Of a DNA stretch of 64,000 nucleotides, positions 17,880-39,492 are shown piece after piece. The stretch comes from a virus, in the IMG/VR virus record IMGVR_UViG_3300030116_004360, positions 26,478-90,477 of that record. One strand, given 5' to 3'. Made by a program: the position numbers and the translations under genes. The notes beneath the pieces are model-generated. The model was not told the DNA's origin. It made no database searches and saw only the letters and a program-made list of their open reading frames with translations. The first letter of the stretch is position 1; the number at the start of each line of letters is the position of its first letter.

Positions 17880-18081
17880 CTGTTCTCCACTCCTTTATTG
17901 TTTCTAATAACATCTTAAAAAAACCATCATCTCTTCTTTGTTTGATAGATAATTCAAGAATAGTTTTTTCTAACTCATCAATCCTAACATTATATTTAGT
18001 TTCAATACTTTTCAATTTTTCTTCTAGTTCACTAACTCTAGTTGCTAACTTATCATCTTTTCTTCCAAACATTAAAACCAC
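17872..18081 (-). CDS. small coiled-coil protein
   Basis: Heptad-rich 69 aa ORF. Confidence 0.55.
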   Translation of the reverse strand: MVLMFGRKDDKLATRVSELEEKLKSIETKYNVRIDELEKTILELSIKQRRDDGFFKMLLETIKEWRTDE

Positions 18082-18971
18082 TCATCCAACGTCTTTTGTC
18101 TAATATCTAACTTAACAGGATTAATTTCCCATTCCATAGCGTCAAATACAGGTTGTGATTTCTTTACAATCACATCTGCATAATGCAAGTAATTTATACT
18201 TACTTTAAATCTATCAATCAATTCCATCAATTTATCATATGTTGGTGCGGCCAACCATTCTAATTTTTTAGATAATCCAGTTATCGGATGAATCCATGAT
18301 AAATTACCCGGTTTAATTTTAATAAAATGAACTGAATCAGGCATTTCATTAAAGTTACTATAATACCATAATGCCCCTGAAATATGTGAACCAACAGAAG
18401 GACTTTTCTTATCTAAAGTTGTAAAGAAAGTTTTACTAGTCCCACATTCACAATTAGGCATATCTATGATATTTTGTATTGAATATTGACTTTTACAATC
18501 TGGACATTTAACTGATAATCTATTTTCTCTAACTCTCTTCCAATCAACTAATTCTTTCAAAGATATATCACCATCCTTAATTTCATTATATCTCTTTCTA
18601 CAAAAGTCATTTATTTCACCTTTAGTATTTTCAGAAGCCCACATTTTCAATACTTTAGTTTGGTGTTCTTTTGCTAATTTAGTTTCAGAAACTCTTTTAG
18701 CCATAAAACCAGTCATAGTAAATTTAGGTTTGTCTAGATAAACTCCATCTTCCCATGAAACAAGACCAGCATTTCTATTCTTCTTAACTCCAACTCCTAA
18801 AGATTGATAATACTTCTCAAATTCTAACTGAACAGGGTGTTCATCAAAACCTAATAAATTAGGAAAAAGAGATTGAACATGAGCATTTAAATGTTCACAT
18901 AACTCCTTTGCTTCATTAACAGAAGGAACAGTTACATAAATTGAATCTGTATGTCCATAAACTACTTTCAT
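18072..18971 (-). CDS. polB: family B DNA polymerase, C-terminal subunit (motif C + thumb) of a split PolB
   Basis: Starts MKVVYGHTDSIYV (motif C variant); LEFEKYY, KKNRNAG; CPDC…CEC Zn insertion; C-terminal PIP box QKTLDEWF. Confidence 0.85.
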   Translation of the reverse strand: MKVVYGHTDSIYVTVPSVNEAKELCEHLNAHVQSLFPNLLGFDEHPVQLEFEKYYQSLGVGVKKNRNAGLVSWEDGVYLDKPKFTMTGFMAKRVSETKLAKEHQTKVLKMWASENTKGEINDFCRKRYNEIKDGDISLKELVDWKRVRENRLSVKCPDCKSQYSIQNIIDMPNCECGTSKTFFTTLDKKSPSVGSHISGALWYYSNFNEMPDSVHFIKIKPGNLSWIHPITGLSKKLEWLAAPTYDKLMELIDRFKVSINYLHYADVIVKKSQPVFDAMEWEINPVKLDIRQKTLDEWF

Positions 18972-20692
18972 TTCATAATCACCATCCTTTTTACTTCTAA
19001 TGCGGCACTTCTAATTGCTTCTCTAGCAGAAGCAGTAATTGATGCTGCTAAATCAATATCTCCCCAACCAAAACCTTGTTTACCAATTACACCATAAAAA
19101 GAAGCAGAAAGGCGTTTTACTGCCATTTGATTTACAAACCACTTATTGTATTCCATAGTGTTGCCCTGTTCTCTCGCAAGATACATTCGACGCTTATATT
19201 CATTTCGTAGTTCCTTTAATTCTAAAACACTTTTAGGTAAAAGACCTAATTTATCTGTTTTATAGTATCTCATAACTTTTGATTTTGTTGGCGAAAAATC
19301 TCTAGGTGTAGCAATATTGACCGCAAATTCAGTTGGTTCTTTTGATTTAGTTTCCCATGAAATATTTCTAGCAATCATCATTGATGGATATAGCCCTGCA
19401 AAATCTAAAGCAGCGACATTTAAATGTAAACCATGTGTTTTTTCAGTTGTCGGGTCATAAATCATAGCACCATCATAATTAATCTTTTGAACTGACTTAT
19501 CTCCTGTTGGAGCCTTCCAAGTTGCATTTCTCATAAAATATACTGCACCCATCATACTTACATACATACATGATTTAAATGGGGCTTTTAGAATCCTTTG
19601 AAGGTAAATAATTGCATCACTACAAAAATTAGTTTCATCAAGTTCTACTAATAACTCCACATCTATTTTAGCATACTCAAGATAAGTTTCTGTATCTTCT
19701 AACCAACCTCGACGGAAAAATTCATTCTTATCAGGAAATTTTTCACTAACTAATTTCTTTTTGCCTAAAGCCATTTCTGCTATATCATCTAAAGCCATTG
19801 AAGGTAATGTTCCTTTTTGAGCATCGCTCCATTGTCTTTCAAATGCTAAATCTAGATTAAGAGTTAATCGTCCACGAATAGGTTGTGAAATAGCATAATA
19901 GTCATCAACCGCTTTAGTTGCTTTTACACCATCATTCCAAATTACACCTTTAACTTCATTATATGGTGATAATCTTCTAGGGTCTAAATCATTAGCGATA
20001 CATCTATGAATTAACTTAGGTAAATCATACTTTAGACCAAACCATGCTAATAACATATCGGGGTCTTTATCTTCAATATAAGTTAAAAACGCATCAAGCA
20101 TTTCTTTTTCAGAATTAAAGACAGACATATGAGCGACTTCTTTTGTAGACATTTTAAATCCATTATACGGGTCTTGGTTAGGAAACCATATCCATTGATA
20201 GTATTGCTTATCATAATTATCATAAGCAACAATACAAGTAATTGCGCCATCATACAAATCATCAGCCATCCATTCCATATCCCAATACATTTTACGCATT
20301 TTAAATTCAGGAATGTCTTTTAATTCATCAACACAGTATCTATCTATAATTGATACATCTGCTTCATAGGTTTGCATAAAACAATCTCTTGCTTTATACA
20401 TATCATTAGGTGAATGAACATATACCTTTTTCAATAATTGACCTTGAAGATTGACCCAATTACCATTTTCATATTCAAATGGAAACCATAACTTAGCCTT
20501 TCTACCTTGAAAGGTATGGGTTACTTCATAACCATCTACTTCTGTTTCAATAGCGCGAATAAAGAAATATGGTCTAAAATTTTCGACCTTTGTTTCCACT
20601 CGATTATTTTCAGAGTCACGCCATCTTAAATTAATATTCTTATCATTGGTATAACAAATATCCATATTATTACTACTCCTTTTTAGTATCAA
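18968..20692 (-). CDS. polB: family B DNA polymerase, N-terminal subunit (exonuclease + motifs A/B)
   Basis: Exo motifs WDMEW, WFGLKYDLP and YAKID; motif A DFAGLYPSMM; motif B KRLSASFYGVIG. Likely start is ATG at 20665. Confidence 0.9.
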   Translation of the reverse strand: MILKRSSNNMDICYTNDKNINLRWRDSENNRVETKVENFRPYFFIRAIETEVDGYEVTHTFQGRKAKLWFPFEYENGNWVNLQGQLLKKVYVHSPNDMYKARDCFMQTYEADVSIIDRYCVDELKDIPEFKMRKMYWDMEWMADDLYDGAITCIVAYDNYDKQYYQWIWFPNQDPYNGFKMSTKEVAHMSVFNSEKEMLDAFLTYIEDKDPDMLLAWFGLKYDLPKLIHRCIANDLDPRRLSPYNEVKGVIWNDGVKATKAVDDYYAISQPIRGRLTLNLDLAFERQWSDAQKGTLPSMALDDIAEMALGKKKLVSEKFPDKNEFFRRGWLEDTETYLEYAKIDVELLVELDETNFCSDAIIYLQRILKAPFKSCMYVSMMGAVYFMRNATWKAPTGDKSVQKINYDGAMIYDPTTEKTHGLHLNVAALDFAGLYPSMMIARNISWETKSKEPTEFAVNIATPRDFSPTKSKVMRYYKTDKLGLLPKSVLELKELRNEYKRRMYLAREQGNTMEYNKWFVNQMAVKRLSASFYGVIGKQGFGWGDIDLAASITASAREAIRSAALEVKRMVIMK

Positions 20693-27487: not shown

Positions 27488-27937
27488 TCATTTTAATCCA
27501 TCCATATATTTAGCGTTTTCTGCCCAATAACCTCGACCTGCATCAGGAGGCAATTGTAAAAAATACCAATGAGCAGGTTTTAATGTCTTATGATTATTTT
27601 CTTCTGCGTTTTCCTTAGCATACCAAGCAAGTTCAGTAATTAAATCAGTAATATGTTCATGAACAAATTTAACTAAGTCACGACTTACAGGCATATTAGT
27701 TTCTTCACGAATTAACTTTGCTATTGGTATCTTAAGCCCAGAAATACTCTTTTCTCTCTTAGGTTTTTCAGGAATAATTAAATCCCCATCTTTAAAATAA
27801 GGAACCATATGTGCGGCCATTTGCATATATCTTCCTCTAGTTTCAGAAACCTTTTTCATAAAGGCAATACCTTCATCAATCTTTATACAAGTATATGGTT
27901 CATTATCAATTATAGTAAAATCATCTATCTCTATCAT
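27488..27937 (-). CDS. histone-fold domain protein
   Basis: C-terminal IPIAKLIREETNMPVSRDLVKFVHEHITDLITELAWYAKENAEENNHKTLKPAH resembles archaeal HMf/NF-Y histone folds. Confidence 0.65.
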   Translation of the reverse strand: MIEIDDFTIIDNEPYTCIKIDEGIAFMKKVSETRGRYMQMAAHMVPYFKDGDLIIPEKPKREKSISGLKIPIAKLIREETNMPVSRDLVKFVHEHITDLITELAWYAKENAEENNHKTLKPAHWYFLQLPPDAGRGYWAENAKYMDGLK

Positions 27938-29496
27938 TAAGCATACCTCCTAACCATTTCTTCGTATGTATCAATATCCGCAACAGGTTTATCATTACGA
28001 ATTCTTTTACATCTAGGGAATCTTAAAGCATAAGTTTCATCTTCATTTTTAGTTACTACATCTCCTGTAACTTCAAGAACAACGCGAGGTAAAAATAAAT
28101 ATGTATCCTTTTCAGAGGATATAATTATCTTACGAAGTTCGTTAGTTAATCTAAATAAATCTGTATCAGAAAAACCTGTTCCAACGGAACCTATCTGAAT
28201 AAATTCATTTTCGTGTTTAACTGATATATCAAAAGAACCAAATACATTTGCTCTTTTACCATCACCATATCTAGCACCAGTAATAACCACATCTAATTCA
28301 ATTAATGGTGGCTTATATTTAATCCAATCTTTAGACCTTTTTCCCGGTTGATATAATGCATCAGTTGGTTTAATAATGATTCCTTCAAAACCATCTTGAA
28401 TTGCTGAATGATAAAAACCCATAACTCCCATTTCATCTGTATTTTCACTCCAAATCCTATGAGTTGGAAAGGGACCGTTGTTGTAGTCCCACTTACTTAA
28501 TCTGTTATATAATGTTTCATCCATAAAAGATTCACCATCCATTTGTAACATATCAAATATAACAAACTTAACTGGACATTTTTGAACTGCATCCATCTTA
28601 TCTTTTGAATGAACTCTAGTGCCTAACTTTTGATGCTTTTCAGGAGTCCCATCTTCTTTAATAGGATAAATCTCTCCATCAACAATAAATTCATTTGGTA
28701 GATTTGATTCAAGAATTTGTTGAACAATATCAGGAAATTGGTCAGTAGCATCTTTACCTTTACGATTAAAAATAATTACTCTATCGTTCTTTCTATGAAC
28801 TTGATACCTATTACCATCATACTTATATTCTACAACATAATTATTATTAGGCCACTTATCTTTAGGTAAGGCTTTTGCTAACATAGGTTTAATAAAATTA
28901 CCAAAGCCTAATGTGTTTGGAACTTCTATATTATTCTCATAAAATGAAATAACTTCATCAATAGGTAAAGCACGAATATCTACTTCCATCTTCTTAAGGT
29001 CTTTATTATAATATTCAGAAACGGCCTTCACTAAATTTTTATTCTGAAAACCATTACGAGGTTTTCTTAACCAATACCGAATAAACCATTTCTTTTCTAG
29101 GCTATTCATCTTATTGAACATCTCTTCAAACAATCTAAAAACATCACCATCAGAACGACTACAATCTAGAGTTAAAATACGAAGTAATTGATTTAAACTA
29201 ATCCCACTTTCTCCTTCCATATAACCATCAAAATTATGAACTCCATCAGCCAAATCACCATACATAGATGAAAAGGTTTCTATTTCATCTTCATATACAC
29301 CATAAGCATTAGCAACCCATTTTACTGCTTTCTTCTTAGCGATATTATTTGGTTCAAGGTCTAGATTTAAAATCTTCACTAGAACTGTTTTATTGTTAGA
29401 TTTATCAAATGCTTCTTGAAAGAGTTTAACTTTAAATGTTGGAGCAACAGTTTCTATACTTTCATTAAACTGTGCAAATTCATATAAAGTATTCAT
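27937..29496 (-). CDS. lig: ATP-dependent DNA ligase
   Basis: KPMLA, EYKYDGNR, VDGEI, FDML, EGIIIK, WIKYK and LRFPR. Confidence 0.95.
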   Translation of the reverse strand: MNTLYEFAQFNESIETVAPTFKVKLFQEAFDKSNNKTVLVKILNLDLEPNNIAKKKAVKWVANAYGVYEDEIETFSSMYGDLADGVHNFDGYMEGESGISLNQLLRILTLDCSRSDGDVFRLFEEMFNKMNSLEKKWFIRYWLRKPRNGFQNKNLVKAVSEYYNKDLKKMEVDIRALPIDEVISFYENNIEVPNTLGFGNFIKPMLAKALPKDKWPNNNYVVEYKYDGNRYQVHRKNDRVIIFNRKGKDATDQFPDIVQQILESNLPNEFIVDGEIYPIKEDGTPEKHQKLGTRVHSKDKMDAVQKCPVKFVIFDMLQMDGESFMDETLYNRLSKWDYNNGPFPTHRIWSENTDEMGVMGFYHSAIQDGFEGIIIKPTDALYQPGKRSKDWIKYKPPLIELDVVITGARYGDGKRANVFGSFDISVKHENEFIQIGSVGTGFSDTDLFRLTNELRKIIISSEKDTYLFLPRVVLEVTGDVVTKNEDETYALRFPRCKRIRNDKPVADIDTYEEMVRRYA

Positions 29497-30729: not shown

Positions 30730-32298
30730 TTATTGCCCCAAATGAGCCGGTAAAGCCATTTCATTTTCACCACCAATAATTGCTACTTCTGTTGTTAAGA
30801 CCATTAATGCAATTGAAACTGCTGAACGGAAACTACTCTTAGTAACTTTTACAGGGTCAATGATGCCTCGTTCAAGAAGGTTTACGTCGTTTTCAATCTT
30901 AAGCGCATCAAAACCCATACCATGCATATTAGATACATCACTGTAAGTTAAATCTACTCCTGCATTTCTAGCAATTTGGAAATATGGTTCATGGAAAATT
31001 CTACTCATTAAAACATTAAAATCATTTTCTTCCATTTGTGTTGAAGCATCAATTAATGCTTTTCCTCCACCAACAACATATCCTTGTTCTCTAGCGGCTT
31101 GTGTAGCATTTAAAGCATCATCTAACCTTTCTTTCTTTTCTTTTAATTCAATTTCAGTTGGTGCGCCTACTGTAATTCTAGCAATTCCACCACGAAGTTT
31201 AGCAATACGTTTCTTTAATCTACTAGCAAGATATTTATCATCAGTGCTATTAAATTTAACTTCAAGTGCAATCGCTCTATCTGAAACTCTCTTATCAGTT
31301 TCATCATCACTATCTACTGTAATAATAGTTCTATCTTTATTAATGATAGCCTTTGAAGCCATACCTAGAACTAAATCATCATTCTTAGAAATATCTTCAC
31401 CAGAATCTACATCAATAACTTTACCGCCAACAATAGAAGATATATCATTCATCTCATCAATCATAGCATCACCAAAACTAGGTGCTTTAATAATACAACA
31501 ATCAATAGTTTTTCTAAGAATATTAACAATAATATTAGCCAATGCTGAACCTGTAACATCTCGCGCCATAATTAATAGTGGTCGCTTATGAGTATTACAA
31601 TGTTCTAAATATGGAAGAATATCTTGAAAGTTCTTAATATCCTCATTAGTCATTAATATATACGGATTGTCCAAAACACATGAACCATCATCTTGATTAA
31701 TCATAGTATGGCTAACCATACCTCTATCAATCTCATAGCCATTTACAATCTCAATACTAGTTTCATTTGTTGTTCCTTCTTGAACAGAAATAACACATTG
31801 TTCACCTGCTAGAGAAATTACTTCAGAAATTAACCCACCTAACTCTTCATCATTGTTAGATGCAATTGTGGCAATTTGCTCAATTTTTTCTTGATTATCA
31901 ACAGGTTCGGCCATAGTATCGAGAACCGCACAAATAGAATCAGTATATTCTAAAATACTCTTTCTAAACTCTGCTAGATTTTCAATAGTTTCTTGATTAA
32001 AATAATCACATAATGCCTGTGCTAATACACAAGCGGTAGTAGTTCCATCACCTGTATTTGATTGAGCCTCTGATGCAACATTTTGAATCAATTCGATTCC
32101 CATTTGAATAAAAGGGTCATCAGAAGATACAAATTTAGCAATTGTTACACCATCATTAATAACAGTTGGTTTAGGATATGTTTGTAATACAACAGTTTTA
32201 GCCTGTGGACCCAATGTTGGTTTTACTGCATCGGCAACAAGATTAACTCCTGCTAATATCTTTTCTTTCGCTTCATCATTAAATAATACTTTACTCAA
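30730..32298 (-). CDS. groEL: group I chaperonin GroEL
   Basis: VKPTLGP, INDGVTIAK, GDGTTTA, IKAPSFGD, DDALNAT, GGG and GIIDPVKV. Confidence 0.95.
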   Translation of the reverse strand: MSKVLFNDEAKEKILAGVNLVADAVKPTLGPQAKTVVLQTYPKPTVINDGVTIAKFVSSDDPFIQMGIELIQNVASEAQSNTGDGTTTACVLAQALCDYFNQETIENLAEFRKSILEYTDSICAVLDTMAEPVDNQEKIEQIATIASNNDEELGGLISEVISLAGEQCVISVQEGTTNETSIEIVNGYEIDRGMVSHTMINQDDGSCVLDNPYILMTNEDIKNFQDILPYLEHCNTHKRPLLIMARDVTGSALANIIVNILRKTIDCCIIKAPSFGDAMIDEMNDISSIVGGKVIDVDSGEDISKNDDLVLGMASKAIINKDRTIITVDSDDETDKRVSDRAIALEVKFNSTDDKYLASRLKKRIAKLRGGIARITVGAPTEIELKEKKERLDDALNATQAAREQGYVVGGGKALIDASTQMEENDFNVLMSRIFHEPYFQIARNAGVDLTYSDVSNMHGMGFDALKIENDVNLLERGIIDPVKVTKSSFRSAVSIALMVLTTEVAIIGGENEMALPAHLGQ

Positions 32299-32785: not shown

Positions 32786-32980
32786 TCATTCCTCTTCACC
32801 TACCGTAAACTCTAATTCTAATACAGAATATCTATACTCTTCTTCCGCAGCCAACAATTGATGGATTAAAAATGTATGCCTTGAAAGAAGGTTTTCAAAT
32901 TCAGATTCAAATAGTTCTAATTCTTCTTTAGCCTCCTTAACATACTTTTCTGCTCTGTTTACATCCTTTTGAGTAGTCAT
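32786..32980 (-). CDS. small coiled-coil protein
   Basis: 64 aa ORF coupled to the JAB gene. Confidence 0.55.
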   Translation of the reverse strand: MTTQKDVNRAEKYVKEAKEELELFESEFENLLSRHTFLIHQLLAAEEEYRYSVLELEFTVGEEE

Positions 32981-33507
32981 TCTTCTTCACCAACATAAGC
33001 CATTCTTTCTTCATAAAAGATAAAATTTTGTAATGTTTTATCATCTTGCATCCAAAGCATCCTTTGTCTATCACCAAGAACAATTGCAGATTCCATCAAT
33101 AGTTTCCAAGAATTAATAGTCCTTCTATCAGTTCCACTAAAATAAGCAGTTCCAAACGGATGAGTATGAATCCAACATTTAATCGGCAATTTCATTTGTT
33201 TCAATTGTTCTTCTTGATTCTCAAAAGAAACGAATCCCGGAGTCCCATAACTGATAAATAATTTCTCATTAGAATCAATTACTACTTGAACTTCTCTATC
33301 AATATCAAAAGCCTTTAGGCTCATAGCAAAAATTTCATCCAGAAATGCTGATGAAAGATACCCTGCAAATATTTTATATCCATAGTTATCTATTTTCCAT
33401 TCATCATAATCTTCTCCTTTATGATTTTGCCATATTTCAAACAAACTTGTTATTCTTTCTTTCCAATCTTCTATCTTTATTTCACTACCATCTACCATTT
33501 TAATCAC
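32977..33507 (-). CDS. JAB/MPN+ metalloprotease (deubiquitinase-like)
   Basis: REVQV (catalytic Glu) and WIHTHPFGTAYFSGTD, which matches the HxH-x7-S-x2-D JAMM motif. Confidence 0.85.
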   Translation of the reverse strand: MIKMVDGSEIKIEDWKERITSLFEIWQNHKGEDYDEWKIDNYGYKIFAGYLSSAFLDEIFAMSLKAFDIDREVQVVIDSNEKLFISYGTPGFVSFENQEEQLKQMKLPIKCWIHTHPFGTAYFSGTDRRTINSWKLLMESAIVLGDRQRMLWMQDDKTLQNFIFYEERMAYVGEEE

Positions 33508-34062
33508 CTATACATTTATCATTTTAAATTCATTCACTTCTTCATTATTAAACCATCTTTGAATCCATTGTGCGCCCATACCTGCAATTGCTACATGGGT
33601 AAAATGAATCCCTTCTTTTTCTCCATTCCAATCACCTTGGCAGGAAAAAGAACCTTCTGGCCCCTTTAATAAAGTATCAATCTTATTCTTATCAATGTCG
33701 TAACTAACTAACGCCCCATTTCTACCTTGAGAACGTAAATCAAGCCACTTTACATTTGAATTGTAAAGCATTTTACGCACATCTAAATTATCTGCACAAC
33801 AAACTACCAATTCAAATCCTTTTACTTGATTTTCCATCAATACCCGATATGGTTGAGGTTTAACACCTTCACATTTATTAGCCATCACTTCGGCCTTATT
33901 CATATCTAATTGTCCAATATTAAAATTTTGGTATGTTAAATTCTTTCCTTCTACAATATCAGGGTCATACACCGTAATATCGTATAACTTCGTTCTATGC
34001 AATAGTGGTATTAGAAAACTTCCAATTCCACCTGCTCCTATAATCATTATTTTTCTTTTCAT
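33508..34062 (-). CDS. ThiF/E1-like ubiquitin-activating enzyme
   Basis: IIGAGGIGS, YDPDIVEGKNLTYQ, CADNLDVR and a candidate catalytic Cys in GSFSCQ. Confidence 0.9.
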   Translation of the reverse strand: MKRKIMIIGAGGIGSFLIPLLHRTKLYDITVYDPDIVEGKNLTYQNFNIGQLDMNKAEVMANKCEGVKPQPYRVLMENQVKGFELVVCCADNLDVRKMLYNSNVKWLDLRSQGRNGALVSYDIDKNKIDTLLKGPEGSFSCQGDWNGEKEGIHFTHVAIAGMGAQWIQRWFNNEEVNEFKMINV

Positions 34063-34064
34063 TT

Positions 34065-34991
34065 TTATTCCTCCCTATCAAATCTTATTCCATTAACAAA
34101 ATCATCTACTGTTATCATTTGTAATAGTTCTCTCTTTGCTTTACCTTTTACTGTAAAACCTAAATCCCTTAGAAGTTCATTAGTATTATTTCTCGTAGAA
34201 ACTGATGTTGTTTCTGTAACTTCTGCTATTCTTACTAAGGAAAAGTTTCTATGTAATATAGTTCTAGTTACATTCAACACTGTTGCAAAAAATGTTTTAG
34301 TTATTGGTTTTGGTTTAGCATAATAAATGCCTTCGACGTATTTACCAATAATGTGAGCAGTTTTAAGAAACTCAAAATCATTAGGACATAATTTACTAAC
34401 CAATAAATCTATTTCTTGAGGCACATTTTTTTGTGCAATAACATGAGGATTTCTAAAAAATCGTGCTACGATTCTTACCTGCTTAAATAAACTTCTTTCA
34501 CTAATATCTAACTTCTTAGCAGTTTGTTTAATAGTTATTGGTCTTCCTAACTCTTTTAGTGTAAAGAATGTTAAAGCACCTGCTCTAACTTCATAGGGTG
34601 TTCTTTTGAATAACCCAACACTATGCGCCCTTCTACAATATTCTACAAGAGTTTCTTGTGATAAAGGTGTAAAATTTCCATCAGTCATTTCAGTTAAAGC
34701 CATCTTAGAATACTTAATATTTATTTCTAAGGATTGGTGTTTTTTATGGCCGTGAAATTTTTCTGCTCTTTTAAGACGATAACCTATTCCTTCTTTTGCA
34801 TTTATGGGTGCAGAACCTAATTGACCTTTATCAGGAGAATGAATAGTTTCACCCGCCTTATTTAAACTATATGTTGTTTCTTCAAGTATAATTGATTCTG
34901 CTACTAATCCACAAGTATTACAAACAAATGACCCTAATCGGTCATCAAGAGTATATTCTCTTTCTCCACATTCAAGACACGGTTCTCGCAT
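34065..34991 (-). CDS. tfb: transcription factor B (TFB/TFIIB) homolog
   Basis: N-terminal Zn ribbon CLECG…CNTCGLV followed by two cyclin-like helical repeats. Confidence 0.8.
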   Translation of the reverse strand: MREPCLECGEREYTLDDRLGSFVCNTCGLVAESIILEETTYSLNKAGETIHSPDKGQLGSAPINAKEGIGYRLKRAEKFHGHKKHQSLEINIKYSKMALTEMTDGNFTPLSQETLVEYCRRAHSVGLFKRTPYEVRAGALTFFTLKELGRPITIKQTAKKLDISERSLFKQVRIVARFFRNPHVIAQKNVPQEIDLLVSKLCPNDFEFLKTAHIIGKYVEGIYYAKPKPITKTFFATVLNVTRTILHRNFSLVRIAEVTETTSVSTRNNTNELLRDLGFTVKGKAKRELLQMITVDDFVNGIRFDREE

Positions 34992-36192
34992 TAATAAATC
35001 CCTCCAAATTATTCCAATCTAATCTACATTCATTCTGTCCACTAACATGATATTTTTCAATATAGCGTTTAATAGTATTTACCATAGCAACAGTCATTTC
35101 GTCATTTAATAATGCTAATGCTCTAGCACAGAATTGGTCACCAACAGAAGAATGTCTAGTCATATTATCAATACAAATAGGCCCATGAAGGGCTAATTTA
35201 GGTTTTAATCCATGTCCTCCTTCATTGTGCTTAACAATAAATGTTGAAACCATTTGAATATCACTTTTATATTCAGCATCAGAAAGAACCCAATCTGCTA
35301 ATTTACCTCTAACTATCATATATGTTCTTTCTGCCTTTTCAATAATTCTAATTCTATTAGGATTAGAGCGTTGCATGGCTTCCATTAGTTCCTTTGCTCT
35401 TTCTTCAACAATATGTTGAGTTCTATTTTGTTCTAAAAATGCAACCATTAGTTTTTGTTGTGTTTCTGTTGGTTTTTTACCCATTAATTTTACCCATAAC
35501 TTTTTCGGTGAAAGATGTTTCCATGAACCACCTTTCTTTTCTTTCCAATAAAAGTTCATATATACATCTAAATCTTTAATAGAAATTGGAGCCCAAATTC
35601 CATCAGATATTTCAATTGCTAATTGATTTTCACCAACCATTTCTACTCTAAATCTACAATCAACCTTTTCTCGTTCTTTATACCAATGAAAAGGTGCGCG
35701 ATTTTCTAATGCATAAGAAACATTCTCTGGTAAAATTAAGTTTCTTTCTAAGTAATTATATAATTCTATTGAGTCATTAGTAAAACATGACCTATAAATA
35801 GTTCTTGCTAAACTACGTAATAGATTTTCCTTAGATGTAACTTTACCATTAATACCATATCTAGTTCCTTTTTTGTAGAAAAGAATAGGAAGTCCTTCAC
35901 CACTAATAGATGAAGAACCAATAGTAACTACATAATTAAATTCTCTAGGCTTATCAATATCATATGAGTATCTACTTCTTCGCTTTCTAGTATTAAGCAC
36001 ATTATTTAAAAATTCATAAATTGCTTGAATTGTTGGTTCATGTGCCTGTCTAAAATTGCTAGGATTTAAAGTAACACGTTGTTCATAGATTTCATCTGAT
36101 GAACTTTCATTTTTAACTGTAATTCTTGTTTTATATTTAACTTGCGCTCTATCTGTCGCTTCTCTTATATTTATTTCATATGCATATACCAT
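34972..36192 (-). CDS. putative E2/UBC-like domain protein
   Basis: C-terminal LHGPICIDNM resembles the UBC catalytic GxICLD segment; sits next to the E1 and JAB genes. Fold not verified. Confidence 0.45.
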   Translation of the reverse strand: MVYAYEINIREATDRAQVKYKTRITVKNESSSDEIYEQRVTLNPSNFRQAHEPTIQAIYEFLNNVLNTRKRRSRYSYDIDKPREFNYVVTIGSSSISGEGLPILFYKKGTRYGINGKVTSKENLLRSLARTIYRSCFTNDSIELYNYLERNLILPENVSYALENRAPFHWYKEREKVDCRFRVEMVGENQLAIEISDGIWAPISIKDLDVYMNFYWKEKKGGSWKHLSPKKLWVKLMGKKPTETQQKLMVAFLEQNRTQHIVEERAKELMEAMQRSNPNRIRIIEKAERTYMIVRGKLADWVLSDAEYKSDIQMVSTFIVKHNEGGHGLKPKLALHGPICIDNMTRHSSVGDQFCARALALLNDEMTVAMVNTIKRYIEKYHVSGQNECRLDWNNLEGFINARTVS

Positions 36193-36393
36193 TTACATCA
36201 CATAATCCTTATCTTTAAAATTCTTTTTGCACTTATGGTGCATTTCTTGTTTTTGTTCTTCTGGTGTTAATAACTGATGACCACATATTCTACATCTAGT
36301 AGCAATTCTTCTATTATAATTAAATTTACTATCCACATAATCGGGGTCATGTTCGGTCATAATATCACTCTTCTTCATTGTTAATTTCTTCAT
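36193..36393 (-). CDS. small Zn-finger protein
   Basis: CRICG…HHKC. Confidence 0.6.
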   Translation of the reverse strand: MKKLTMKKSDIMTEHDPDYVDSKFNYNRRIATRCRICGHQLLTPEEQKQEMHHKCKKNFKDKDYVM

Positions 36394-36676
36394 ATATACT
36401 ATACTCTCTAATTAATTGATATTTACCATCTAAATATCCATATTTTCTGCGAGTAATAGTTTTGAAATCAGTTTCCATTAGCCCCATCATGATAGCATAC
36501 ATAATTACCATATTAAAGGGTTCTTTTTTTATTGAAGTCCAAGACCATTTTTGTCCTTGTATTGATAATGGTTTTTCACTATTCCATTTTATTCTCATAG
36601 CCTTTATTACTTCACTTTTATAAAAATTCTTTAATATCCAATCTGGATTTGCCTGTCCATCTACTATCTTAACCAT
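36365..36676 (-). CDS. hypothetical protein
   Basis: ORF in the operon. Confidence 0.55.
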   Translation of the reverse strand: MVKIVDGQANPDWILKNFYKSEVIKAMRIKWNSEKPLSIQGQKWSWTSIKKEPFNMVIMYAIMMGLMETDFKTITRRKYGYLDGKYQLIREYSIYEEINNEEE

Positions 36677-36953
36677 CTACATCACCATTATTATTATAAT
36701 ATTCTAACATATTTTCTGTTTCTTTCTTTTTATTTTTCATCCACTGTGGATAACCCATAGCAATAGCATCATCAAGATGCCATAAAGCCTCAGTTATTTC
36801 TGAAACTACCATAAATATTCTATTTTTATCAGAATAATGTAATGTTTCTGCTTTATAAATAGTATTCATAATTTTTATCCAATGTTCAGGTTCAAAATAA
36901 TGCTCCCATTCAAGAACTATTCTTTTACATTCATGAAAATCCTTAAAAATCAT
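36669..36953 (-). CDS. hypothetical protein
   Basis: ATGA-coupled to the RNR gene. Confidence 0.6.
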   Translation of the reverse strand: MIFKDFHECKRIVLEWEHYFEPEHWIKIMNTIYKAETLHYSDKNRIFMVVSEITEALWHLDDAIAMGYPQWMKNKKKETENMLEYYNNNGDVDG

Positions 36954-38806
36954 ATTTCACAAACTCCACCTGCACACGCGGCTTCACCACTTAAATTAGT
37001 ATTATCTTCTAATTCTTTTACAGATGTTAAATCAATAGTTTTTAAGTGGGAAGCCAATTCATTAAATTGTTTCAACCCAATATCTTCAAATGGTGCTTGA
37101 ACATAAGTTCCACCATCATAAGGTAATACAGATAAACCGTTGTAATAATGACGATTCATCCATAACCATTCTCCAACCGGAGTCCATTCATCTTCTTTAA
37201 TAGATATTGTAGCAGATACATTATGCGTATTCATACCATCAACGTGACCTCTTTGAACCCAACGGATTGAATATCTTTTAACACGCTCTAATAGGTCAAA
37301 AACATCCTCTGTTCTAACGATTGACCCCTTTGGTGCGCGTTGAGGTATGCTAATTTTGGCCTCTGTTTCCTTCTTAAAAAAATCATCTTCAACTAATTCA
37401 GGATGATTAGCCTTCAAGTAAGGATAAATCGCTTCACCCTTTCCAACACTAACTCTACGAATATAGTAATCATTATGATAAGCATGAATACCTGAAGAAG
37501 TCCCTAAAACTAGAGATGTTGTTCCAGCAGGTTTAATGCAAGTCATTCTCATAGAAGGATTAATTCCTATTTGTTTAGCAATAGTATCATTTGTTTTCCT
37601 TACTTCATAAGCGGCATTTTCAATATCTAATGTTTCTAGTTTATTAGCAGCAATACCTGTTATTGATACTCCTAATAGAGCATCCTTTTCGGTAGTTTTC
37701 TGCCAAATTTCTCGTAAATAATGAAAATCAGTATAACCTGCTTGAAGAGTTGCTAAAAATGCTCCAGCCTTTACTCGCTCTTCTAAATCATTTTGGTCTT
37801 TAACAGTAGCACCATTTACTTCAACTAAATTACAGAATTGATAAGGTCTTAATGCAATTTCACAACATGGGTTAGTTCCCCAATCTTTATCATTTGAAAA
37901 ATATATTCCGGGTTCTCCAGAACCGCTATATCTTATTCTATTCCATAAATCTTTAAACTTATCTTTAGTAATTCTATGTCGTATAATTACGGCAGAATTA
38001 TTTGCTCGTCCTCTTTGTGGATTTTCTTCCCACCATGAACCACTTTTACAAGAAATCATTTCACTATCATTTAATGAAAATAAACTAATTAATGCCGCAC
38101 GACGAATACCACCTGCTAAAACTGCATCAGCAATATGGCACATAATATCATGAGTTTGAATAGTAGATAATCTTGAACCATCTTCTTTTTCAGAAAGAAT
38201 GGATTCAATTTTAACTAAACATTCTCTTAATGGATTTGGACCCGGAGCGCGACCTCCAGAAGTTTTCAATAATGCTCCTTTAGGTCTAATATCAGAGTAA
38301 TCAAATATAGGTCTAGATGTTCTAATTCCCATATAAGATTCCATTAAACATTTAACTGCATCAGCCCAACCTTCGATGGAATCTCCAATCAAATGTCTCC
38401 TTTGTCTTTCTTTATTTGGTTTCTTTATTTCAGGTAATTGTTCAACATGATGATGCTGAACAGAATAACCTACGCCTGTCCCTCCTAATAACAAAAACAT
38501 TGTTTCTGAAAAAGATTCAATAGAATCTACTGGCAAATACGCACAATTATAAATTCTATTTGGAGCCATTTCAATAGGCTTTCCAGCAAATTGCATTGAA
38601 CGCATTGATGGAAGAACTAACTTTGTTTTAACAAACTTTTCATATAATTGTTTAATTGCATCCTTCATTTCAGGATATTTCTTCATGTGCATTTCACAAT
38701 TACGGTCTGTAATTTCCTCCCAAGTTTCTCTCCTTTCTTCATCAGGTAAATATTTTGCATATTTCATATGGACAATAATATCGCTTAAAATTTGTTTTTC
38801 TTTCAT
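36950..38806 (-). CDS. nrdJ: class II (B12-dependent) ribonucleotide reductase
   Basis: IYNCAY, TNPCCEI, FCNL, IKPAGT and C-terminal CAGGVC; no small subunit gene nearby. Confidence 0.9.
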   Translation of the reverse strand: MKEKQILSDIIVHMKYAKYLPDEERRETWEEITDRNCEMHMKKYPEMKDAIKQLYEKFVKTKLVLPSMRSMQFAGKPIEMAPNRIYNCAYLPVDSIESFSETMFLLLGGTGVGYSVQHHHVEQLPEIKKPNKERQRRHLIGDSIEGWADAVKCLMESYMGIRTSRPIFDYSDIRPKGALLKTSGGRAPGPNPLRECLVKIESILSEKEDGSRLSTIQTHDIMCHIADAVLAGGIRRAALISLFSLNDSEMISCKSGSWWEENPQRGRANNSAVIIRHRITKDKFKDLWNRIRYSGSGEPGIYFSNDKDWGTNPCCEIALRPYQFCNLVEVNGATVKDQNDLEERVKAGAFLATLQAGYTDFHYLREIWQKTTEKDALLGVSITGIAANKLETLDIENAAYEVRKTNDTIAKQIGINPSMRMTCIKPAGTTSLVLGTSSGIHAYHNDYYIRRVSVGKGEAIYPYLKANHPELVEDDFFKKETEAKISIPQRAPKGSIVRTEDVFDLLERVKRYSIRWVQRGHVDGMNTHNVSATISIKEDEWTPVGEWLWMNRHYYNGLSVLPYDGGTYVQAPFEDIGLKQFNELASHLKTIDLTSVKELEDNTNLSGEAACAGGVCEI

Positions 38807-38807
38807 A

Positions 38808-39200
38808 TTAACACTTCACTTGCTTTCTATATGGGAAATCTGATAAGATAGTGCATGAAGTTACCCATTCATTATCTTTAGTTTTACGAATGACCCATTC
38901 TTTTTCAACAAGCCATTTCCAATCAGAAAAAGATTCAAGTATATTTTGACCCTTTTCCTCTATTGCCTTTGATACAGAATTATATTTTTTCCCATCAATA
39001 ATTACTTCTGTATATCCTTCAACTCCAATTATAGCCTTTTTACTAGTGGCTAGAACAAAAGGAGTTTCATAAAAATCCGGTTTTATACAAACCAAATTTT
39101 CTATTACCTTTACTTTATCTGATACAAACCATCCTAATTGGTCTTTTAATATCATATAAAAGGCTTCTTTGCCTATAAAATTGGCTAAATCTGCATTCAC
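38808..39200 (-). CDS. hypothetical protein
   Basis: GTG start after a GGAGGTG RBS. Confidence 0.65.
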   Translation of the reverse strand: MNADLANFIGKEAFYMILKDQLGWFVSDKVKVIENLVCIKPDFYETPFVLATSKKAIIGVEGYTEVIIDGKKYNSVSKAIEEKGQNILESFSDWKWLVEKEWVIRKTKDNEWVTSCTILSDFPYRKQVKC

Positions 39201-39217
39201 TTTTACACCTCCTTATT

Positions 39218-39276
39218 AGGGGATAGAATACTCTAGGCTAATTAAAGGTTGAATATCCTATCCCCCTTTTGGGGAA
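39218..39276 (-). terminator. inverted repeat/hairpin downstream of the Ubl gene
   Basis: GGGGATAG…CTATCCCC inverted repeat plus an overlapping TCCCC-CTTTT-GGGGA hairpin. Confidence 0.45.
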
Positions 39277-39288
39277 TAACAGATTTAT

Positions 39289-39492
39289 TTAGTTACAACC
39301 GCCAACGATTGCCGGTGCTAAATCAACATTTTCCACGCTATCCCAATTAATATGGGTAATTTCTTCGCGTGAAACTAGTTCATTATCAATAAATACCCAA
39401 TGTGTAGGGTGTTCATTAATTTGGTCAATCGCTTCGCTTGCATCTACTATTAGTTCTGTATGTCCTGTTTCATTCATTATTCTTAATTTCAT
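39289..39492 (-). CDS. ubiquitin-like (beta-grasp) protein with C-terminal GG-CN
   Basis: 67 aa: MKLRIMNETGHTELIV…WVFIDNELV…VDLAPAIVGGCN has a ThiS/MoaD/SAMP-like strand pattern with a diglycine and a 2-residue extension. Confidence 0.75.
   Translation of the reverse strand: MKLRIMNETGHTELIVDASEAIDQINEHPTHWVFIDNELVSREEITHINWDSVENVDLAPAIVGGCN

Follow-up and report, generated by a model that had tools for sequence, protein, structure and literature searches.

A stretch of 64,000 nucleotides (nt) of viral DNA, referred to below as the window (bases 26478-90477 of the 90,477-base IMG/VR virus record IMGVR_UViG_3300030116_004360, which as a whole is 96% complete according to CheckV), carries on one strand four genes that together resemble a ubiquitin-type module: a small ubiquitin-like protein (Ubl), a ThiF-type activating enzyme (E1), a 406-residue protein (p406) that is a candidate conjugating enzyme (E2), and a JAB/JAMM metalloprotease (JAB). 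The evidence leans slightly towards the virus encoding its own ubiquitin-like protein-conjugation pathway. Judged from their sequences, it is very probable that Ubl, E1 and JAB work together, and protein conjugates are the reasonably likely output of such a pathway; for p406, the predicted fold puts the chance that it is the E2 at about even. What the analysis shows is the gene set, its motifs, the predicted folds and the strict conservation; the individual chemical steps, the role of p406 as E2 and the targets are inferred. Because its gene content fits the founding magrovirus paper, in the part of that paper available (PMC5434244), the genome is treated as that of a tailed virus of the magrovirus type, with marine group II archaea as the deduced host.

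The tag was originally predicted to be a 67-residue beta-grasp-like protein ending in IVGG-CN, and this description holds. The open reading frame (ORF) is present where it had been placed (Table 1), and its AlphaFold model (36 sequences, pLDDT 78.6) shows the succession strand-strand-helix-strand-strand-(short helix)-strand of a beta-grasp. All 50 rows listed by Foldseek for this model are ubiquitin, NEDD8, SUMO or MoaD, with a best E value of only 8.1e-3, and the fold matches include the Ubls of solved Bil/Bub complexes (8tyz_B, 9eav_C), SAMP1 and Urm1. These fold scores are weak, as a 67-residue query allows, yet the answer is uniform and points to a beta-grasp fold. No Pfam match to the ThiS, MoaD or ubiquitin families was obtained for the 36 family members at E values up to 1; the family profile matched no solved Ubl among solved sequences, and the SAMP families are likewise without detectable similarity.

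A search of IMG/VR with the Ubl alignment returned 217 contigs, the best 80 of which were analysed as loci; the 71 loci with at least 9 kb downstream of Ubl are termed informative. Gly-Gly is followed by 0-2 residues in 80 of 80 viral loci, nine of which end exactly at GG. The pattern (P/Q)(A/P)(I/V)(V/I)GG, followed by 0-4 residues of almost any kind, occurs in 119 of the 120 database homologs listed, among which four end exactly at GG and one carries a 10-residue extension. An invariant Gly-Gly with a freely varying tail is the classic signature of a protease-processed precursor. The protein is strongly conserved overall (mean column identity of 68%), with His11, His28 and His31 invariant and a sole Lys at position 2. 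The family also appears to be essentially virus-only: among 185,579 species genomes searched, two real matches were found, both on short contigs of one metagenome-assembled genome (MAG). These cellular records (L098 and L099, 14.8 and 7.5 kb) belong to a flavobacterial MAG labelled Altibacter sp. and are probably magrovirus contigs binned by mistake. As a separate observation, Pfam places a match to Inhibitor_I24 below threshold in 14 of the 36 family members (best E 4.6e-4). This is the family of phage T4 PinA, an inhibitor of the Lon protease; the match may reflect chance or a shared small fold.

For the second component, the original prediction of a ThiF/E1 protein with an intact GxGGxG and a candidate catalytic Cys is borne out. 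The protein matches Pfam ThiF (PF00899) with an E value of 5.4e-14 and 52.4 bits, above the cut-off of 28.1, and both GxGGxG and S[FYW]xCQ are found in 75/75 homologs, here as the GAGGIGS nucleotide loop and as an invariant Cys in GSFSCQ. The residues K40, N41, K56, D91, N92 and C141 are invariant among 12 sequences. In E1 enzymes the Gly-rich nucleotide loop and the Asp-Asn pair serve Mg/ATP, and the catalytic Cys sits in the crossover loop; C141, a candidate for this Cys, lies 50 residues past D91. The profile of 12 viral homologs matched 57 solved sequences, nearly all of the E1 superfamily, with a ThiF-type protein first (5.6e-10); further solved relatives are MccB, Cap2, UBA5, TcdA, Uba4, UBA1, MoeB, NAE, SAE2 and ThiF, and structure 9egc is the closest solved relative. 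In PADLOC, the best match is the E1 domain of CBASS Cap2 (Cap2 E1-E2 model, 4.1e-12); by sequence, the viral E1 is nearest to this domain, to the plasmid PRTRC ThiF proteins and to a ThiF-like gene of crAss-like phages. It scores under the cut-off of every specific NCBIfam model. Two unnamed PHROGs families match the E1, and PHROGs gave no match for the other module proteins.

Relatives of the viral E1 also occur in phages, with 47 matching records, 29 of them from Bacteroides phages. In Bacteroides phage DAC15 (L097, MT074136.1, 75859-77968), a ThiF-family gene (2.1e-14) is directly preceded by a weak Prok-JAB protein (6.5e-5). A uracil-DNA glycosylase lies two genes downstream of the crAss-like ThiF gene, and all of these genes are annotated as hypothetical.

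The claim of an intact JAMM protease is likewise upheld. The consensus E...HxHx7SxxD is the metal-binding and catalytic motif of JAMM enzymes; HxHx7SxxD is present in 74/74 homologs and the upstream Glu in 13/13, and the complete signature, E...HTHPFGTAYFSGTD in this virus, is invariant in 13/13 homologs. The best solved relatives are AMSH-like JAMM deubiquitinases (AMSH-LP), aligned through the JAMM motif with an E value of 5.6e-4. The protein remains below the Pfam cut-offs for Prok-JAB (22.1 bits vs 25) and JAB (13.4 vs 22.5). Its start adjoins the E1 stop, and its stop overlaps the start of the next gene as ATGA (32977-32980). Several genes of the run, including the ORFs at 34065-34991, 32786-32980 and 36365-36676, end in Glu-Glu-Glu or Glu-Glu; these purine-rich Glu codons may also provide the ribosome-binding site for the gene that follows, a form of translational coupling. 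In the L008-L013 sub-lineage, three small genes (80, 122 and 126 residues, e.g. L008:8573-9471) are inserted between E1 and JAB, the first with a CxxC...H pattern and the last with a C-terminal hydrophobic helix.

The outcome for p406, which had been described as a putative E2 with a UBC-like GPICID motif, is divided: its Cys340 is invariant and its C-terminal part is modelled as UBC/RWD-like, whereas the fold scores are low and no sequence link to E2 was found. The family comprises 229 close homologs, none with a Pfam domain. In the C-terminal part of the model (40 sequences, pLDDT 86.2), a helix (258-276) is followed by strands at 281-286, 289-295, 300-305, 315-322 and 333-339, then by Cys340 and by helices at 350-362, 364-370, 372-375 and 393-405. 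A fold search of 48,161 representative chains, made with a tool other than Foldseek, gave 32 entries that are E2, UEV or RWD by title among the 50 top rows, all on residues 258-393. Across 40 full-length and 56 C-terminal sequences, Cys340 (the Cys of GPICID) alone among the cysteines is invariant; it is located between strand 333-339 and helix 350-362. In E2 enzymes, whose fold consists of a helix, a four-strand meander and further helices, the catalytic Cys occupies the loop between strand 4 and helix 2. The other invariant residues of p406 (D342, G351, D352, Q353, R357, N363 and D364) cluster within the 25 residues after Cys340, and the motif C[IV]D[NQ] is found in 75/78 homologs. By linear interpolation of the aligned ranges, a rough estimate, Cys340 falls within about 7 residues of the catalytic position of Ubc9, Ubc13, UBE2S and UBE2K. 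On the model, p406 is a candidate for a new HPN-less, virus-only E2-like family with a 250-residue N-terminal part.

Other searches with p406 added little to this picture. Foldseek, run with the whole model against the PDB, gave no meaningful match (best E 0.087); BFVD returned three unnamed homologs only, and the ESM Atlas gave no usable match for the C-terminal domain. A UQ_con search of the genome found nothing, and its control likewise matched nowhere. A single copy of the E2-like domain was detected in this genome, the next best match having an E value of 2.5. As a side observation, ten repeated stretches of a 1617-residue protein (P0371) match positions 46-79 of the profile of the E2-like domain, in the conserved GK..DW strand region (E 1.1e-11).

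The co-occurrence of the four genes in a fixed order is far more than chance. All five ORFs of the original prediction, namely the four above and a small zinc-finger ORF, exist on the minus strand in one co-oriented run, and the comparison with related viruses gave Ubl > p406 > E1 > JAB on the same strand in 71/71 informative loci; the nine shorter loci contain partial sets, as expected. A search with E1 yielded 13 IMG/VR loci, with JAB and p406 in 13/13 and Ubl in 10, the remaining three ending before the expected place of Ubl. The divergent loci L003-L007 are of particular use in judging this linkage. There, p406 is 25-28% identical, and no homolog of the neighbouring TFIIB/TFB-like transcription factor (TFB) or of a 414-residue neighbour was found in the 12.8-16.5 kb examined; p406, E1 and JAB remain side by side, and Ubl is present in the three loci reaching far enough. 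Furthermore, in L022, L024 and L026 no other gene separates Ubl, the zinc-finger ORF and p406. Both arrangements speak for a specific link among the module genes.

In the pathway proposed here, the 67-residue beta-grasp protein would be made as a precursor, its reactive Gly-Gly being capped by one or two variable residues (CN in this virus). The JAMM protease would take off this cap and probably also strip the tag from conjugates. The 184-residue E1 would adenylate the exposed C-terminal Gly with ATP, and the tag may then load onto the invariant Cys141, from which it would move to the invariant Cys340 in the UBC-like C-terminal domain of p406, acting as E2. The N-terminal 250 residues of p406 would perhaps select the targets, and the tag would end on lysines of host or viral proteins during infection. 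A more specific and rather tentative version is that a whole major lineage of these viruses, which are abundant in the sea, runs a complete and self-contained cascade that would tag host proteins in the course of infection, for instance to pass them to the host proteasome or to disable defence.

Several observations weigh against such a pathway. All loci were found through Ubl or E1 and the 80 are the closest of the 217; viruses lacking the module are unsampled. Co-linearity alone could be backbone conservation, because TFB (78/80 loci) and the genes for the 414-residue (72/80) and a 91-residue protein (74/80) are nearly as constant nearby. The E1 is atypical as well. It carries N[LIV]xYQ in 70/75 homologs and the Arg of NLxRQ, which contacts phosphate in E1 enzymes, in 0/75; the viral Tyr aligns to the conserved Arg of solved E1s, and the invariant Lys40, two residues before the Tyr, may compensate for the lost Arg. 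With 184 residues vs 249-251 for solved MoeB/ThiF chains, it lacks the C-terminal domain of ThiF/MoeB, which in those enzymes holds the Ubl and bears zinc CxxC pairs. No CxxC pair is found anywhere in the viral sequence, the Gly loop starts at residue 9 with no N-terminal helix, and the profile alignments to solved chains span only about the first 100 residues. As for p406, the HPN motif that precedes the catalytic Cys in E2 enzymes is absent, the loop 323-332 being variable with long insertions in some homologs, and the fold-match scores lie in the range that the search tool calls unsafe. The protein has no Pfam, NCBIfam or PADLOC match, 13 C-terminal domains also gave none in Pfam, and its profile matches no solved E2. 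The profile of the 56 C-terminal domains, searched against 1.84 billion representatives, gave 159 matches with no bridge to known E2s, all of them of the same architecture or fragments of it apart from the 1617-residue repeat protein. A comparison by hhalign with one PRTRC Prok-E2_D protein, a weak test on a single protein, gave a probability of 0.04. Finally, a capped Gly-Gly trimmed by a JAB protease is also found in the sulfur-carrier systems CysO/Mec+ and QbsE/QbsD; because CysO and QbsE are trimmed alike, this feature does not discriminate between conjugation and sulfur transfer.

The points on p406 would be accommodated if conjugation were run by E1 alone, as in haloarchaeal SAMPylation, with Ubl, E1 and JAB as the whole pathway and p406 as an unrelated conserved magrovirus protein that simply holds its position within a conserved block of genes. 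The archaeal SAMP systems do operate without an E2, which is established knowledge, and the missing sequence or profile link to any E2, the unsafe fold scores and the near-equal constancy of the neighbouring genes would all fit. We nevertheless regard this arrangement as unlikely, since p406 stays beside E1 and JAB in L003-L007, where TFB and the 414-residue protein were not found, directly follows Ubl in some loci, and has its sole invariant Cys at the place of the E2 Cys in a UBC-like predicted fold. Less probable still is a sulfur carrier, in which E1 would adenylate the trimmed Ubl to give a thiocarboxylate whose sulfur is donated through host enzymes. A possible use would be 2-thiolation of U34 in the viral tRNA-Lys(UUU), helping to decode AT-rich genes: the virus has two tRNA genes, tRNA-Lys(UUU) and tRNA-Leu(UAA), each with U at the wobble position, the G+C content of the window is 29-37%, and in cells a relay of this type serves to 2-thiolate tRNAs such as tRNA-Lys(UUU). 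Archaeal Ubls often do both jobs, SAMP2 among them, as does the eukaryotic Urm1 (for Urm1, partly according to an abstract), JAB-trimmed carriers with a capped Gly-Gly exist, and one data source labels some Ubl homologs 'sulfur carrier protein ThiS'. Against this stands the gene content. Sulfur-transfer partners such as thiG and moaE had been noted as lacking in the window, and the same holds when the search is extended to the 96%-complete genome: no PP-loop ATPase (thiolase) or rhodanese was found in the 90.5 kb, and no MoaE, ThiG, CysM or cysteine desulfurase among the Pfam-scanned ORFs (from 100 residues upwards within the window and from 70 upwards in the remaining 26.5 kb), although partners encoded by the host could take their place. 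The E1 itself has no rhodanese domain. The Ubl shows no detectable sequence similarity to the ThiS, MoaD and SAMP families, and therefore its use by host partner enzymes is not expected; in addition, it occurs in one species genome only, on the two short contigs resembling mis-binned virus. A sulfur relay would also leave the UBC-like protein with its invariant Cys without a place.

It is highly improbable that the module serves assembly or maturation without conjugation, in the manner of the lambda tail-assembly Ubl protein I and JAB protein K, or acts as a decoy jamming a host Ubl-based defence. Phage Ubl and JAB pairs without conjugation are described in the consulted part of PMC1779556, and bacteria use Ubl conjugation against phages, as the title of Hor et al. 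2024 states. The viral module, however, sits within the replication block and is 30-40 kb away from the genes for head and tail; nothing is fused to its Ubl, and it always includes an E1 whose nucleotide-binding residues are intact (75/75).

Among known systems, Ubl, E1-like, E2-like and JAB gene clusters were first predicted in bacteria (Iyer, Burroughs and Aravind 2006, PMC1779556), and the bacterial examples now include the Bil and Bub operons (PMC10557695, PMC11601596) and type II CBASS Cap2/Cap3, according to the accessible sections of these papers. Like these clusters, the viral module has a small beta-grasp protein carrying a C-terminal Gly, together with a ThiF-type E1, a Cys-bearing E2-like candidate and a JAB peptidase. 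The links to CBASS, Bil and Bub include the best PADLOC match of E1, to the Cap2 E1 domain, and the Ubl fold matches to solved Bil/Bub Ubls. In contrast to the bacterial clusters, which reside in cellular defence islands, the module is owned by an archaeal virus, and its genes are spread across 6.5 kb among replication genes instead of forming a tight operon. Its E1 is much shorter (184 residues) than the bacterial E1s and has Tyr for the conserved Arg, and its E2 candidate, unlike the bacterial E2-like proteins, belongs to a family confined to viruses and carries a fused N-terminal part of 250 residues. No PADLOC or NCBIfam model matched Ubl, JAB or p406. The module is, on sequence criteria, not a member of the Bil, Bub or CBASS families, apart from the place of E1 in the ThiF superfamily.

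The PRTRC cassette (ParB-related, ThiF-related) of plasmids is another pair borne by mobile elements, with a short ThiF-type E1 and an E2, and the plasmid tblastn matches of the viral E1 are mostly PRTRC ThiF proteins. In one such cassette, the gene before ThiF is Prok-E2_D (1.8e-29). The viral E1 nevertheless differs, reaching 3.4e-9 and 36.4 bits against NCBIfam PRTRC_ThiF vs a family cut-off of 144.75, and p406 is without similarity to the one PRTRC Prok-E2_D protein compared. As an observation on the cassette itself, the Salinimonas iocasae plasmid (L101, NZ_CP039853.1, 324074-329478) carries ParB, PRTRC-E, a 74-residue ORF, a 459-residue ORF, Prok-E2_D and ThiF; this is an E2-E1 pair on a plasmid, and the small ORF could be its Ubl.

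Within archaea, the closest parallel in setting is the SAMP/UbaA/HvJAMM1 system, together with Urm1 (PMC4895103, PMC4443979, PMC4569737), which, as far as the available text of these papers goes, likewise combines a beta-grasp Gly-Gly tag, a ThiF-type E1 and a tag-removing JAMM protease. In the same text, the SAMP systems are cellular and have no E2, unlike the viral set with its E2 candidate. The viral E1 scores 25 bits vs a cut-off of 450 for the UbaA model NF047750 and is not a UbaA equivalog, and by sequence the viral Ubl family matches none of the known Ubl families. ThiF/MoeB-family genes with a suggested link to ubiquitin-like modification have been reported for archaeal viruses in the RaFAH paper (PMC8276007) and for the Asgard virus Nidhogg (bioRxiv 10.1101/2021.07.29.454249). 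The sections available of both reports present an E1-like gene only, proposed to exploit host Ubl systems, and describe no viral Ubl, JAB or E2 candidate. In phage lambda, the tail-assembly proteins I (Ubl) and K (JAB + NlpC/P60) likewise pair a viral Ubl, whose C-terminal Gly is conserved, with a JAB peptidase, as given in the part of PMC1779556 consulted. In contrast to the viral module, lambda I/K is located in the tail module, has neither E1 nor E2, and has its Ubl fused to another domain.

No description of the module was found in the literature searched. The main texts of the magrovirus papers searched do not contain the words ThiF, JAB or ubiquitin, and their supplementary gene tables could list the genes; for archaeal viruses, a ThiF/MoeB-like gene is the only component mentioned in the accessible parts of the papers searched (PMC8276007, bioRxiv 10.1101/2021.07.29.454249). 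A few archaea and various bacteria are known to have Ubl-E1-E2-JAB sets, which in bacteria either act in defence or have no assigned role. In the magrovirus genomes examined, the whole set, with the E2 as a candidate, is a fixed component, and four points set it apart: its ownership by a virus, the scatter of its genes among those for replication, a very small and altered E1, and an E2-candidate family confined to viruses. Magroviruses are among the most abundant marine viruses according to the part of the founding paper at hand (PMC5434244). If the module conjugates, it would be a virus-owned tagging system in archaea and would bear on the spread of ubiquitin-type signalling between viruses and cells; biochemistry would gain a new E2-like family and a very small E1, which would be of the smallest kind known. 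If host proteins are tagged, the system would be the archaeal-virus counterpart of the use of ubiquitin by eukaryotic viruses and a mirror image of the bacterial Bil defence.

Table 1. Features of the module and of the surrounding gene run, in window coordinates.
Feature	Position	Strand	Remarks
Ubl precursor, 67 aa, beta-grasp, end AIVGG + cap CN	39289..39492	-	ORF and model
Stem-loop, 16 bp, directly 3' of the Ubl stop codon	39218..39266	-	in the 88-nt gap after the Ubl gene
p406, 406 aa	34972..36192	-	ORF; UBC/RWD-like domain predicted at residues ~258-393 (window ~35014-35421)
Minimal E1-like adenylating enzyme, 184 aa	33508..34062	-	Pfam ThiF
JAMM/MPN+ metalloprotease (JAB), 176 aa, GTG start	32977..33507	-	JAMM motif
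Zinc-knuckle or ribbon-like protein (CxxC...HxxC), 66 aa	36193..36393	-	adjoins the 406-aa gene
TFIIB/TFB-like transcription factor	34065..34991	-	replication block, between E2 candidate and E1; Pfam TFIIB zinc ribbon 1.1e-5, sub-cut-off
Split family-B DNA polymerase	18072-20692	-	replication block
RFC-like AAA+ protein		-	replication block
ERCC4 nuclease		-	replication block
PD-(D/E)XK nuclease		-	replication block
ATP-dependent DNA ligase	27937-29496	-	replication block
Histone-fold protein		-	replication block
Cpn60-type chaperonin	30730-32298	-	replication block
Class II ribonucleotide reductase (RNR)	36950-38806	-	replication block

The small zinc-finger ORF next to p406 had been put forward as an E3 or adaptor, a role that finds no backing here. 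Its conserved ligands are C, C, H and C only (6 sequences), i.e. one four-ligand site, whereas a RING-type E3 has eight zinc ligands in cross-brace order; no RING similarity and no significant match were found for it, the weak solved match being the Rpb12 zinc ribbon (E 0.045). The ORF is present in 49/71 informative loci (in 55/80 loci by blastp) and absent from 22/71, and in L003, L005 and L006 it stands upstream of Ubl instead. It keeps to the module and may be an accessory. TFB is probably not part of the module, being undetected in L003-L007, where p406, E1 and JAB persist.

The co-oriented minus-strand run extends from about 12 kb to 47 kb of the window and contains both the replication block and the module (Table 1). 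The genes for terminase, portal, prohead protease, capsid and tail tube are in the remaining 26.5 kb of the genome. In the part available, the founding magrovirus paper (PMC5434244) describes group B1 as having a split polymerase and group B as carrying ribonucleotide reductase; it also reports a GroEL-type chaperonin and two tRNAs. A GroES identity was considered for the 85-residue ORF preceding the chaperonin and found no support in Pfam or in further comparison. In the structural module, an 837-residue protein (L015:10265-12778) encoded between the prohead protease and genes of the portal region contains a further ATP-dependent DNA ligase domain (1.3e-28), besides the ligase at window 27937-29496. 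A 217-residue protein of the head/tail module (L015:17094-17747) gives weak small-GTPase matches to Arf (3.3e-4) and SRP receptor beta (7.8e-4), both sub-cut-off.

Near-identical DNA is also present in further public runs. A 3176-nt contig of run X2 has one difference across JAB-E1-TFB-p406, and three contigs of run X3, from another study, match module DNA with no difference. In the metatranscriptome run X20, short contigs fall on 34891-34957 (0 differences) and 36590-36964 (1 difference) and on the conserved RNR gene, although contigs of an RNA library do not demonstrate transcription; the same run gave nothing usable on Ubl, E1 or JAB, the E1 match being only 57 nt long with 5 differences.

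The stem-loop behind the Ubl gene is itself a recurrent feature. The region 39196-39295 has a minimum free energy of -29.6 kcal/mol (z -3.45 vs shuffles), and across the 80 loci from related viruses the median for the 100 nt that follow the Ubl ORF is -35 kcal/mol, compared with -17 kcal/mol for random windows of the same loci, with z < -2 in 53/80. The hairpin is possibly a terminator or an mRNA-stabilising element, and it may separate the transcript of Ubl from the enzyme genes further downstream.

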